From the IMG/VR virus record IMGVR_UViG_3300037089_000557: DNA of 58,017 nt. One strand, written 5' to 3'. Shown here piece by piece: positions 20,706-22,379 of this stretch. The notes beneath the pieces are model-generated. The model did not search any database, was not told where the DNA came from, and saw nothing but the letters and a program-made list of their open reading frames with translations. The DNA comes from a virus. The number at the start of each line of letters is the position of its first letter. Position 1 is the first letter of the stretch. Position numbers and translations under genes: made by a program.

Positions 20706-22379
20706 ATGAAAAAATCTTCGAAATGGGCGCTTGCCGGCATTGCCTTGGGATTTGCCATTCATCGCTTCATCATTCCCTGGGGATTGACCGCCTACGTAAA
20801 CATGAAATACGCCCCAGAGATCCATGTAGAGTATAGCAGTCTCGTCTGGCTAAAGCTAGATTGTGCCAGGTTTAGTAATGTCAAAATTGCCAAACCAACA
20901 ATGTCTGGAACTATAGAATCAGTTGTTGCTTGTTACAGAGAAAAAACAATCGAAGCTAATGGCGGCAAGTTAGATGTTGTCGTTGCCAAATCTTCTGGTA
21001 AAGATTCTGGCACTCATGGATTTACAGTTACTGCAAAAAACCTTGAAGTTCATGTAACCAAAGGCGATATCTCAGCAGATCTTTCTGGAACCACAGTATA
21101 TCCAATTGCAATATGTGCAACCAAGGTATTGGCACATCACCAAAAAGCAGACGCCGTAATGCTTAATCTATGTTTTAATCGAAAGAATAATAGCTTTAAG
21201 GCATTAAGCGGAATTGTAATGCCAAAACTAGAAATAAAAGGACACAAGATATCAGATATATCATTCACAGGTTTGTTAAAGGCCAGTAATACGGAACTGT
21301 CTGTTGGTGAGATTAGATATGAAGAAGACAACGTTGTGTCTGATGTAAGTGCTTCAATTAAAGATGGGCTTATTTCAGTGAATATTGGTTCTCTTACAGC
21401 GTCTCATAATAAACTTTTTAGCTCACCGCTTACTGTAAAAGACATCAAGATATCAGGCATATCGAAAAAAGATCCACTATCAAGTAAAGTTGTTGTTGGT
21501 ATTGGAGAGAAAGTTACTTTACTTGCAGATGTAGATAAGAGACGAATCTCTGGAAAAGACACCTGTGATAATTGGTTTGATATAGTTCCAAAAGAATTAA
21601 AGGATGGGCCTATATCTCAGATGAAAATCAGGGGCATGTTTGGATTTGATATTCAATTTGGAAAACCAATATCTCTTAAGATAAACAGTACTTGTAGCAT
21701 TGACGGACCAACACCAGAGTTTATTACAGATCTCAGCAAGCCATTCAAATACACAGCATACCATCCTGACGGAACTTCTTTTGAGCGCATCGCCGGACCT
21801 GGGACAAATGATTGGATTCCATTAGACTTCGTGGACAACATGGCAACGGCTTTGACGATCACAGAAGATCCTGGCTTTTGGCACCATCGTGGTATAATCC
21901 CACAGGCGCTGGAGAACTCTCTCAAAGATGATATGCGCCTTGGCAGGTTCTTTCGAGGCGGCAGCACAATCACGATGCAGCTTGCCAAGAACCTCTGGCT
22001 AAACCGAAGCAGAACGCTCGGACGAAAATTGCAAGAAGGCATTCTCACCATAGCCTTGGAGAGCTGCCTAAGTAAAGAAAAGATACTTGAACTATATTTG
22101 AACGTGGTTGAGTTTGGCCCCAATATTTATGGCATAGGCCCTGGATGTGCCAAATTTCTCAAGAAATATCCCGGAGAAATATCACTATCAGAAGCTATGT
22201 ACATGGCAATTAGATTGCCGTCTCCCAACAAAGTACGATCATACGAAGCTAGTAAAGGATTCATCAAAAAGCTGATTGCGATTGGCGTTGCTACCGGCAA
22301 GATCTCAGAAGATGAATTAGCTACCGAGCTTCAAGCCGAGCAGGCTAAAGAGCAAGAAGAAGATTCCGAAGATGATTGA
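20706..22379 (+). CDS. Membrane-anchored protein with a C-terminal peptidoglycan glycosyltransferase (GT51, transglycosylase) domain
   Basis: N-terminal hydrophobic segment; GT51 motifs EDPGFWHHRGI, GGSTITMQLAKN, RKLQE, KEKILELYLNVVEFG around nt 21840-22270; acidic tail. Confidence 0.75.
   Translation: MKKSSKWALAGIALGFAIHRFIIPWGLTAYVNMKYAPEIHVEYSSLVWLKLDCARFSNVKIAKPTMSGTIESVVACYREKTIEANGGKLDVVVAKSSGKDSGTHGFTVTAKNLEVHVTKGDISADLSGTTVYPIAICATKVLAHHQKADAVMLNLCFNRKNNSFKALSGIVMPKLEIKGHKISDISFTGLLKASNTELSVGEIRYEEDNVVSDVSASIKDGLISVNIGSLTASHNKLFSSPLTVKDIKISGISKKDPLSSKVVVGIGEKVTLLADVDKRRISGKDTCDNWFDIVPKELKDGPISQMKIRGMFGFDIQFGKPISLKINSTCSIDGPTPEFITDLSKPFKYTAYHPDGTSFERIAGPGTNDWIPLDFVDNMATALTITEDPGFWHHRGIIPQALENSLKDDMRLGRFFRGGSTITMQLAKNLWLNRSRTLGRKLQEGILTIALESCLSKEKILELYLNVVEFGPNIYGIGPGCAKFLKKYPGEISLSEAMYMAIRLPSPNKVRSYEASKGFIKKLIAIGVATGKISEDELATELQAEQAKEQEEDSEDD

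Follow-up and report, generated by a model that had tools for sequence, protein, structure and literature searches.

What phages are known to do to peptidoglycan is to cut it, on entering the host and at lysis. The locus considered here raises the question of why a phage should carry a gene for polymerizing it. It lies in a 58,017-nucleotide stretch of viral DNA (IMG/VR record IMGVR_UViG_3300037089_000557; the window, below). From the letters of this DNA and a list of its open reading frames, an original prediction had described a peptidoglycan-synthesizing GT51 transglycosylase domain fused to a long membrane-anchored N-terminal region. We asked whether the enzyme is complete, what precedes it, whether the gene belongs to a phage, and what the protein might do in an infected cell.

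The GT51 domain and its relatives

The open reading frame is exactly as predicted, running from ATG to TGA on the + strand and encoding 557 aa (Table 1). Ten contigs that were assembled independently encode the identical protein, which rules out an assembly artefact for this gene. More than 100 full-length homologues were found, and comparison with an 81%-identical relative gave a dN/dS of 0.10 for the gene as a whole. A scan for promoters and terminators gave nothing exceeding the shuffled expectation; a TTGACA-18 nt-TATAAG element that ends 5 nt upstream of the ATG fails the rule of that scan and is mentioned as a mere curiosity.

Table 1. Position of the GT51 gene in the window, and of the features of its product
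Feature	Position	Strand	Basis
GT51 gene, 557-aa TM / β-groove / GT51 protein	20706..22379	+	ORF list; ATG start; TGA at 22377-22379
Predicted signal-anchor helix (residues 2-35; hydrophobic core ~7-29), basic MKKSSK before it	20709..20810	+	AlphaFold2, hydropathy
Predicted β-meander, 17 consecutive strands (residues 39-286)	20820..21563	+	AlphaFold2 model
Small α/β linker module (residues 287-365)	21564..21800	+	Invariant columns; dN/dS 0.10
Complete GT51 peptidoglycan glycosyltransferase domain (residues 366-535)	21801..22310	+	Pfam PF00912, motifs
GT51 motif 1, EDPGFWHHRG (residues 387-396; first catalytic Glu E387)	21864..21893	+	Invariant columns
GT51 motif 2, GGSTITMQ (residues 418-425)	21957..21980	+	Invariant columns
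GT51 motif 3, RKLQE (residues 440-444; second catalytic Glu E444)	22023..22037	+	Invariant columns
GT51 motif 4, KEKILELYLN (residues 457-466)	22074..22103	+	Invariant columns
C-terminal helix and acidic tail (residues 532-557; 12 D/E, 2 K/R)	22299..22376	+	AlphaFold2 helix 535-555

The GT51 domain was found where it had been placed, in the C-terminal third of the protein: a Pfam scan matched PF00912 (Transgly) at residues 368–517 of 557 (E=1.3e-38; 132.6 bits against a cut-off of 27), and the same family was matched by 47/47 homologues. The signal of this match and of the motifs in the ORF is far above chance. All four of the expected signature motifs are present, with one departure from the predicted wording, in that motif 2 reads TMQ and not TQQ. 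Among the 47 homologues, which diverge down to 29% identity, the invariant positions are E387, D388, F391, H394 and G396 in motif 1; G418, S420, T421, M424 and Q425 in motif 2; R440, K441 and E444 in motif 3, which aligns with RKIKE of Aquifex PBP1a; and K457, E462, Y464 and N466 in motif 4. An invariant Met specific to the family has replaced the first Gln of TQQ, while the second Gln is retained. Both catalytic glutamates, the residues on which the assignment would stand or fall, align with their equivalents in Aquifex PBP1a. Motif 5 (RRxxVL) is not conserved, reading K..I.KL in the family profile as compared with RRNLVL in 2oqo; since this motif is non-catalytic, GT51 membership is unaffected by its loss.

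When the family profile was compared with the PDB, 2oqo was the best match (E=1.6e-47), with the whole GT domain covered. An AlphaFold2 model of the 557-aa protein (pLDDT 90.5, pTM 0.79) has the lysozyme-like head and the jaw of solved GT51 domains, and the structural neighbours of the modelled domain are MtgA and PBP1a-GT. Jaw-region lengths are those of MtgA, PBP1A and PBP1B. Jaw-region hydropathy does not separate the family from MtgA, so it is uninformative on whether membrane contact has been lost. The dN/dS of the domain is 0.024 (range 0.02–0.03), indicating very strong purifying selection. We conclude, as far as homology can show, that the C-terminal 170 residues constitute a complete GT51 peptidoglycan glycosyltransferase with its catalytic residues intact. 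The claim that it is biosynthetic and not a lytic transglycosylase is borne out by PF00912 being the sole Pfam match, with no match to SLT, GH23, GH24, GH25 or any other lysozyme-like family. Phage lysins such as phiKZ gp144 and T4 gp5 are likewise encoded by phages and also have the glycan strand of peptidoglycan as their target, but they cleave it and have a lysozyme-like or SLT fold, whereas the GT51 enzyme is predicted to polymerize it from lipid II.

Closest by sequence among known enzymes is the GT domain of Aquifex aeolicus PBP1a (PDB 2oqo/3nb6; 34–36% identity, TM 0.8). In contrast to class A PBPs, the window protein lacks any transpeptidase (PF00905), UB2H/ODD regulatory or C-terminal BiPBP domain, and it ends 22 residues past the GT domain. 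Its best NCBIfam match was PBP_1c, and the PBP_1a, 1b and 1c models all scored far below their cut-offs. MtgA (E. coli/Salmonella; S. aureus, PDB 3vmq/3hzs) is a protein of about 240–270 aa in which the TM helix abuts the GT domain, whereas in the phage-encoded protein about 330 residues, the β-groove and the linker, lie between the two. The NCBIfam MtgA equivalog model TIGR02070 gave 117.5 bits, below its cut-off of 182.65, and in a neighbour-joining tree the family forms a clade apart from MtgA, PBP1A, PBP1B and PBP1C.

Anchor, β-meander, linker and tail

Residues 1–367 contain no Pfam domain. The TM segment predicted in this region was recovered as a single N-terminal hydrophobic segment; nowhere else in the protein does hydropathy peak above 1.2. 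Residues 1–35 include 5 K/R and 0 D/E. The basic stretch ahead of the hydrophobic core implies an N-in, C-out topology, and the best explanation is a single-pass inner-membrane protein whose N-terminus would be cytoplasmic and whose remainder would be periplasmic.

In the model, the anchor leads straight into a long antiparallel β-meander. Foldseek searches of BFVD and the PDB matched this meander to Chorein-N, LPD-3 and Atg2, and the best structural matches of residues 39–286 were the lipid-transfer grooves of LPD-3/BLTP1, LptD/A/C, Vps13 and Atg2. The earlier description of an N-terminus with no recognizable domain holds at the level of sequence but less well at the level of predicted fold. 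By prediction, the 250-residue β-meander between anchor and enzyme resembles a lipid-transfer groove in its fold.

The best structural-match group comprises LmeA (PF11209, formerly DUF2993), AsmA-like proteins, TamB, YhdP, GspN, Vps13, Atg2, BLTP1/LPD-3 and the Lpt β-jellyrolls. An N-terminal membrane anchor, a long β-meander directly after it and a periplasmic location are, by prediction for the window protein, common to it and this group. The intermembrane bridges are, however, far longer than the β module of the window protein, which leads into an enzyme and not to an outer-membrane partner, and whose lipid binding is putative. LmeA, a periplasmic protein that binds lipid and has a Chorein-N domain, has been tied to the elongation of a lipid-anchored glycan, and a coupling of glycan elongation and lipid transfer has been proposed for it (PMC7643837). 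Neither GT51 genes in phages nor a fusion of GT51 with AsmA/LmeA-like modules was the subject of any paper found in our literature search, and the predicted joining of a lipid-transfer-type groove to a GT51 domain appears to be undescribed.

Three Cys pairs co-vary in their presence among the homologues (47/47, 34/47 and about 30/47), which fits the expectation for periplasmic disulfides. The pairs C53/C76 and C137/C156 of the β-meander are partly conserved. In the linker, the C287-C330 pair is invariant, as are W290, P295, G310 and Y349, and this small module is predicted to be disulfide-locked via C287-C330. At the other end of the protein, the acidic C-terminus that had been pointed out occupies the last 26 residues. 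It is a family-wide property, tails of about 23 residues averaging 7.2 acidic and 1.6 basic ones (47 homologues), and model confidence falls in this tail to a pLDDT of 61–79.

Possible roles in the infected cell

We lean towards the view that the infected cell makes the protein as a monofunctional peptidoglycan polymerase, independent of regulators, for upkeep or repair of the wall. A huge phage would produce a single-pass inner-membrane GT51 protein inside its host; the phage enzyme would convert host lipid II to glycan strands, and cross-linking would then be carried out by host transpeptidases. Gram-negative class A PBPs depend on Lpo lipoproteins through regulatory docking domains. Because such domains are absent here, wall synthesis by the phage enzyme would be independent of host regulators. 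The groove would most likely bind undecaprenyl lipid, be it that of lipid II or that of the elongating chain, or else a membrane lipid, and would feed or hold the substrate of the polymerase, much as LmeA has been proposed to aid polyprenol-dependent mannan elongation. The likeliest benefit would be a sacculus that is kept intact, repaired or enlarged in a long, high-burst infection after host expression has been shut off. As to the physiological role, wall maintenance or repair is something that we purely infer. Were it correct, a huge-phage lineage would also build or maintain the wall of its host during infection; host takeover would thereby gain a function of a new class, and the survival of cells through very long and very large infections a possible explanation.

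A bolder proposal, which we regard as speculative and unlikely, is that the groove lifts lipid II or a lipid-linked strand from the inner membrane to a GT51 domain held ~8–10 nm off, at the level of the sacculus. Polymerization would then proceed off the membrane and without host PBP activators; huge phages would use it to rebuild or thicken the wall, and the Myxococcota, whose chromosomes encode related proteins, for some wall process. This would be the first peptidoglycan polymerase coupled to a lipid-transfer groove. The groove–GT51 architecture offers a testable model in which undecaprenyl-linked substrates are handled by something besides the membrane, in parallel with the LmeA proposal for mycobacterial lipomannan elongation, and the protein, small and confidently predicted, could be assayed directly with the lipid II and moenomycin tools now available.

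A polymerase without a transpeptidase could equally damage the wall, a counterpoint to any wall-building role. It is possible, if unlikely, that the protein acts as a lipid II sink or takeover weapon, turning lipid II into uncross-linked strands and so starving host wall growth and division, or rival processes that need undecaprenyl phosphate, or weakening the wall to time lysis. The enzyme is monofunctional, without regulatory domains and with its catalytic residues intact, and the cognate transpeptidase that might have been expected nearby was not found among the 40 window ORFs scanned. Uncoupling of glycan polymerization from cross-linking is known to cause futile cycling and lysis, and the outcome would be analogous to that of single-gene lysis proteins, which block lipid II supply. 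Nevertheless, E. coli MtgA is also monofunctional and yet harmless; huge phages generally carry dedicated lysis genes; and the chromosomal Myxococcota homologues, with their same architecture, argue that such a protein is compatible with normal growth. The position of the gene also speaks against a sink, in that it lies among early-type nucleotide-metabolism genes and not in a lysis cassette. These neighbours are not virion genes, and no other wall gene was found near the GT51 gene. The gene types that recur beside it in divergent phages are VWA, nucleoside deoxyribosyltransferase-like, dNMP kinase, NUDIX/NrtR and HNH, again with no wall genes. No conserved operon partners were found, synteny being confined to relatives at least about 69% identical.

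The same molecular evidence as for wall maintenance would serve a role in superinfection exclusion or the sealing of entry wounds, with peptidoglycan thickened or patched against later phages, or repaired where the tail lysin of the same phage has breached it. Class A PBP-type enzymes are linked to wall repair, which suits this reading. Envelope modification is named among exclusion strategies in reviews of jumbo phages (PMC7824862). However, no conserved partner or exclusion-type genes were found nearby, and we consider this role quite unlikely.

It is also doubtful, in our judgement very much so, that the β module is a rigid stalk or a docking scaffold (with the sacculus, the outer membrane or a protein of the elongasome or divisome as its partner) and not a lipid carrier. 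Such a scaffold would be consistent with the sequence comparisons. Pfam LmeA was matched by 2/47 homologues (best E=1.6e-8), the window protein gave no LmeA or AsmA Pfam match even at E<=1, and alignment of the N-terminal profile with E. coli AsmA by hhalign was negative (probability 0.5%). Searched against 1.84 billion representative proteins, the N-terminal profile retrieved essentially this family and a few giant repetitive β-proteins. The latter were rejected as relatives: their Pfam matches were noise with faint LptD_N/YdbH-like signals, and the similarity was read as one of β-repeat composition. The module also evolves faster than the enzyme, with a dN/dS of 0.13–0.29 as compared with 0.02–0.03 (0.10–0.13 for the N-terminal modules beside 0.024 for GT51), and its length differs between phages (about 250 aa) and Myxococcota (about 450–550 aa). 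In contrast, all of its best structural neighbours are lipid-transport grooves, and it follows the membrane anchor directly, an arrangement also seen in AsmA-like grooves.

Probable viral origin and chromosomal relatives

Several observations give indirect support to the assumption that the gene belongs to a phage, and point to a lineage of huge phages. The window has 19 scattered tRNAs, including one suppressor, and its ORFs are mostly small ORFans, together with HNH endonucleases, an intein and a CCA-adding enzyme. Relatives of the GT51 gene occur on at least 43 IMG/VR contigs of 130–530 kb, and the neighbourhood of one family member (L106) includes a homologue of a phage-specific vWFA protein that is conserved in the Ackermannviridae. 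The view of the gene as unusual cargo for a phage needs to be qualified, in that within its own lineage it is conserved and under strong purifying selection. The data support a conserved gene of a huge-phage lineage and not a one-off capture.

The alternative, that the contig is non-viral and comes from an uncultivated organism with a small genome, in whose chromosome this would be an ordinary gene for wall synthesis, is highly improbable in the face of these observations. It draws on the database labels of some homologues: one (P0005) is filed by NCBI under Candidatus Pacearchaeota, others occur in Omnitrophota, Parcubacteria and Ignavibacteria MAGs, and three MAG contigs fall inside the viral clade of the tree. 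However, the MAG contigs are short (3.6–10.8 kb) and their assigned phyla mutually inconsistent, which is typical of misbinned phage DNA, and the Pacearchaeota label is at odds with the absence of murein from archaea, to our knowledge a general one. A non-viral contig would also accord with the lack of capsid, portal and terminase genes in the 58-kb window, for which the GT51 gene and 39 other ORFs were compared with Pfam and 10 of those 39 also with PHROGs. A weak PHROG match of one ORF (L110) to terminase was unconfirmed, the region being of HNH/ThyX type.

No phage match was obtained by Megablast with 23 kb of the window. As to the host, Shine-Dalgarno usage is low (18/62 window ORFs), a value undiagnostic of host, and a search with GMP reductase returned only huge-phage contigs as best matches, with contradictory MAG labels. 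Among the 'phage' GT51 genes of INPHARED found by tblastn, coverage of the query was at most 42%. Those annotated matches that were inspected lie beside host genes (glyS/gatD, LysE, alpha-2-macroglobulin) or on bacterial contigs filed as phage, and so provide no evidence for known phage GT51 genes.

The same TM-β-GT51 architecture, in a longer form, is encoded in Myxococcota chromosomes, in genomes of 60–75% GC; the fusion is thus not phage-specific and not a phage invention. We found no paper on these Myxococcota TM / β-rich / GT51 proteins. They are mostly 690–900 aa long, with an N-terminus of about 450–650 aa, and are 35–45% identical to the phage protein over residues 286–543. Matches in cellular genomes begin at about residue 286, and the linker is the only part upstream of GT51 with sequence-level similarity to the Myxococcota proteins. 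Consistent with this, hhalign against the N-terminus of a Sorangium cellulosum So0157-2 protein (788 aa, L015:6576-8942) aligned only residues 286–361, the β regions being unalignable; domain order and the Cys-pair linker are nevertheless as in the phage protein. In the neighbour-joining tree the Myxococcota proteins are the sister group of the phage clade, and one phage subgroup is nested inside them.

Motif 2 of the Sorangium homologue reads GASTVSMQ, with the Met that is common to the phage family. The substitution of this Met for the first Gln, and the unconserved motif 5, would suit a catalytically dead binding module or a decoy that sequesters lipid II or, as the original prediction had suggested, a host regulator; but both catalytic Glu and all other residues of motifs 1–4 are invariant across so divergent a family, the constraint on the domain is very strong, and the Met variant also occurs in the chromosomal Myxococcota enzymes, all of which makes such a decoy exceedingly improbable.

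The GT51 domain and its integrity

The open reading frame lies at the predicted position and encodes 557 residues from ATG to TGA. The identical protein sequence recurs on 10 contigs that were assembled separately and come from several samples, which rules out an assembly artefact. The sole Pfam match of the protein is to PF00912 (Transgly, GT51; residues 368-517, E=1.3e-38, 132.6 bits against a gathering score of 27). The nearest NCBIfam models, those for PBP1c, the PBP1A family and MtgA, matched only the GT region and all scored far under their family cut-offs. The protein is thus not an MtgA equivalog (117.5 bits versus a cut-off of 182.65), and a class A PBP is excluded because there is no transpeptidase domain; the enzyme domain is an ordinary GT51 member. 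A profile built from 47 full-length homologues, with identities to the query down to 29%, matched the Aquifex aeolicus PBP1a glycosyltransferase domain (2oqo) with E=1.6e-47 over residues 13-195 of 200, that is, over the complete domain.

All four signature motifs quoted in the original prediction are present, although motif 2 reads TMQ rather than TQQ. The residues invariant in the 47-sequence alignment are E387, D388, F391, H394 and G396 in motif 1; G418, S420, T421, M424, Q425, K428 and N429 from motif 2 onward; and R440, K441, E444, K457, E462, Y464 and N466 in motifs 3 and 4. The intervals between motifs 1-2, 2-3 and 3-4 (21, 14 and 12 residues) are the same in Salmonella MtgA, PBP1A and PBP1B, and the non-catalytic motif 5 (RRxxVL) is the only motif not conserved. 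Since both catalytic glutamates, E387 and E444, are invariant and no lysozyme-like or SLT family was matched, the reading of the domain as biosynthetic rather than lytic stands. Strong purifying selection is apparent from the comparison with an 81%-identical relative (Nei-Gojobori), in which dN/dS was 0.024 in the GT51 domain and 0.10-0.13 in the N-terminal modules. The suggestion that the protein might be a catalytically dead decoy is very unlikely in view of these conservation data. An AlphaFold2 model computed from the alignment had a mean pLDDT of 90.5 and a pTM of 0.79. Judged by its sequence and predicted structure, this is an intact biosynthetic GT51; the original observation is confirmed, and its interpretation is supported in sharper form.

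The acidic C-terminus was also borne out (12 acidic and 2 basic residues among the last 26), and a short acidic tail is found family-wide. A promoter-like element (TTGACA-18 nt-TATAAG) ends 5 nt upstream of the ATG and no Shine-Dalgarno sequence precedes the gene, so the mRNA may be leaderless; a consensus promoter scan does not count this element because its last -10 base is G. An SD-like motif was seen in 18 of the 62 window ORFs.

Positions of the features discussed, in window nucleotides unless residues are stated
Feature	Position	Strand	Details
Vault-like gene	10555-13296	+	913 aa; major-vault-protein shoulder PF11978, E=1.9e-27
Suppressor tRNA	16071-16146	+	anticodon CTA, amber; ARAGORN label Pyl
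NAD kinase adjoining SLOG/YpsA-family protein	16363-18064	+	
402-aa ORF	19441-20649	+	immediately upstream of GT51 gene; no family match
Region with promoter-like element	20671-20705		
GT51 gene	20706-22379	+	
Motif 1	residues 387-396		EDPGFWHHRG
Motif 2	residues 418-425		GGSTITMQ
Motif 3	residues 440-444		RKLQE
Motif 4	residues 457-466		KEKILELYLN
Two tandem paralogous small acidic proteins	22653-23081, 23078-23605	+	directly downstream of GT51 gene
Radical-SAM enzyme with intein	23822-25693	+	623 aa; LAGLIDADG homing-endonuclease domain in intein
R2K-clade ATP-grasp enzyme	43669-44496	-	
GMP reductase	49721-50746	-	

The N-terminal region and the proposed role

The N-terminal part had been described as membrane-anchored and devoid of a recognisable domain. 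It does carry a single hydrophobic segment (residues ~7-29), and its first 367 residues have no Pfam match, but a predicted fold can be assigned. The AlphaFold2 model comprises a helix (residues 2-35), 17 consecutive antiparallel strands joined by tight turns (39-286) and a small alpha/beta linker module (287-365). Residues 1-35 contain five basic and no acidic residues, and cysteines are kept as pairs: C287/C330, which would lock the linker by a disulfide, in 47 of 47 homologues, C53/C76 in 34 and C137/C156 in ~30. These features point to a signal anchor in N-in orientation and place the remainder of the protein in the oxidising periplasm.

Foldseek matched the beta-meander to giant-virus Chorein-N (VPS13-like) proteins in a viral library (E ~1e-7) and to LPD-3, LptD and Atg2 in the PDB, and the predicted fold is lipid-groove-like. 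Pfam LmeA (PF11209) was matched by two of the 47 homologues (best E 1.6e-8) and not by the window protein itself, and hhalign of the N-terminal profile with E. coli AsmA revealed no similarity (probability 0.5%). Searched against 1.84 billion representative proteins, this profile gave 249 matches, nearly all of them ~550-aa proteins of the same architecture; at the sequence level the module is therefore particular to the GT51-gene family. Giant repetitive proteins of 2.6-6.9 kaa (P0176, P0221, P0223, P0232 and others) match profile residues ~57-260, in 10-25 tandem stretches each. Pfam gave a faint LptD_N match in one of four giants and faint YdbH-like, DUF3540 and Toastrack matches in another; the resemblance could reflect beta-repeat composition or a distant relationship.

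From what is known of GT51 enzymes, the phage protein would polymerise host lipid II into glycan strands and leave their cross-linking to host transpeptidases. UB2H/ODD-type docking domains are a feature of Gram-negative class A PBPs; the phage protein has none, so Lpo activators should not be needed. By analogy, the groove module would feed or retain the substrate of the polymerase by binding either membrane lipid or the undecaprenyl lipid of the substrate or product. The authors of work on LmeA, a lipid-binding protein of the periplasm that contains a Chorein-N domain, speculate that it links the elongation of mannan to the transfer of lipid across the periplasm (PMC7643837). A polymerase active away from the membrane and supplied with lipid II through the groove seems to us improbable, and a rival view makes the N-terminal module a scaffold with no lipid role.

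The most likely pay-off for the phage would be maintenance, repair or enlargement of the wall during a long infection. Several jumbo phages cause envelope bulging, according to a review that mentions no phage wall synthase (PMC13282480). Alternatively, the protein might drain lipid II and so weaken or starve the host wall, or serve superinfection exclusion or wound sealing. Three points are inferred: the physiological role, the host, and how the groove is placed relative to the enzyme. The sequence and the model themselves point to a peptidoglycan polymerase that is monofunctional, bears a new arm resembling a lipid groove and is kept across a lineage of huge phages. In the literature we found no description of the TM-beta-GT51 architecture or its occurrence in phages; jumbo-phage overviews and a paper on a new lineage of large aquatic phages mention peptidoglycan solely in connection with its degradation or with adhesion, and BFVD (predicted viral protein structures) gave no GT51 match at E<=1e-3. 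Such a polymerase is surprising for phage biology and offers cell-wall enzymology a directly testable lead.

Genome and gene neighbourhood

The GT51 protein has homologues on 43 viral contigs in IMG/VR, and many of these contigs are 200-530 kb long. The best homologues of the window's GMP reductase lie on the same contigs (230-460 kb), which makes it another long-standing gene of the phage lineage. The NCBI labels Thorarchaeota, Clostridia and Pacearchaeota on GMP-reductase homologues seem to stem from phage contigs that were binned wrongly. The same seems true of the labels on one GT51 homologue ("Candidatus Pacearchaeota") and on three short homologue-bearing contigs (Omnitrophota, Parcubacteria, Ignavibacteria), which are mutually contradictory. 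Near the family member in locus L106 is a 910-aa protein that, along 85% of its length, shows homology to a vWFA protein conserved in Ackermannviridae phages. No capsid, portal or terminase gene was found in the window, so its assignment to phage DNA, set against a cellular origin of the contig, is well supported but indirect. A weak terminase hint outside the window was not upheld, and there was no nucleotide match to the window in 50,697 phage records.

The window carries 19 scattered tRNA genes (962-44830), and TAG is the stop codon of 12 of the 62 ORFs despite the amber-suppressor tRNA. It also encodes a CCA-adding enzyme, HNH endonucleases, DEDDh exonucleases and VWA proteins; most of its ORFs are small and without any family. 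We take its NAD kinase, SLOG/YpsA protein and R2K ATP-grasp enzyme to be typical jumbo-phage NAD/nucleotide-conflict genes. The vault-like protein also has a Vault_3 repeat and matches SPFH/Band 7 weakly, and its gene is kept in the related loci L007 and L008. Near ~36.8 kb both the coding strand and the sign of the GC skew change: genes are on the + strand between 15.3 kb and this point, and on the - strand from there to 57.5 kb.

The cognate transpeptidase sought nearby did not appear: a Pfam scan of 40 window ORFs revealed no transpeptidase, L,D-transpeptidase or other recognisable wall-synthesis enzyme. Gene order around the GT51 gene (402-aa ORF, GT51, two small acidic paralogues, radical-SAM gene, HD-domain gene) is kept only in relatives at least about 69% identical. 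The 402-aa ORF is syntenic in these close relatives and lies 7 kb from the GT51 gene in L093. The acidic paralogues, the second with a run of ~40 Asp/Glu, have no family match and are kept only in close relatives. At the position of the intein-bearing gene, the 69%-identity relative L005 has an uninterrupted radical-SAM gene of 305 aa, and four distant loci have radical-SAM genes less than 5 kb away from the GT51 gene. Recurrent neighbours in distant phages are VWA, nucleoside-deoxyribosyltransferase-like, dNMP kinase, NUDIX/NrtR and HNH endonuclease genes. The neighbourhood is one of nucleotide metabolism, not a virion or lysis module.

Family and origin

Full-length proteins fall into more than 100 clusters at 90% identity, and about 170-250 representatives are left at 50%. 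Among species-representative genomes, the closest cellular relatives are overwhelmingly Myxococcota (Sorangium, Polyangium, Labilithrix, Nannocystaceae), matching residues ~286-543 with 35-45% identity. In these chromosomal proteins the parts follow one another in the same order, and both the Met of motif 2 and the linker module with its Cys pair are shared. Their greater length (690-900 aa in most) sets them apart, and their beta regions cannot be aligned with those of the phage proteins. The Sorangium cellulosum So0157-2 protein, for example, has 788 aa, with an N-terminal TM, a long N-terminal region and PF00912 at 566-711.

Sequences from phages and Myxococcota grouped in one clade of a neighbour-joining tree, apart from MtgA, PBP1A, PBP1B and PBP1C. 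The TM-beta-GT51 architecture was therefore not invented by phages. The window sequence and most phage sequences formed one subclade, and a second phage subgroup of 650-680-aa TM-beta-GT51 proteins (L116-L127, IMG/VR contigs of 13-436 kb) was nested among Myxococcota. This nesting, together with the GC range of the family-bearing viral loci (0.37 to 0.68), suggests that huge phages and Myxococcota-like bacteria have exchanged the gene more than once.
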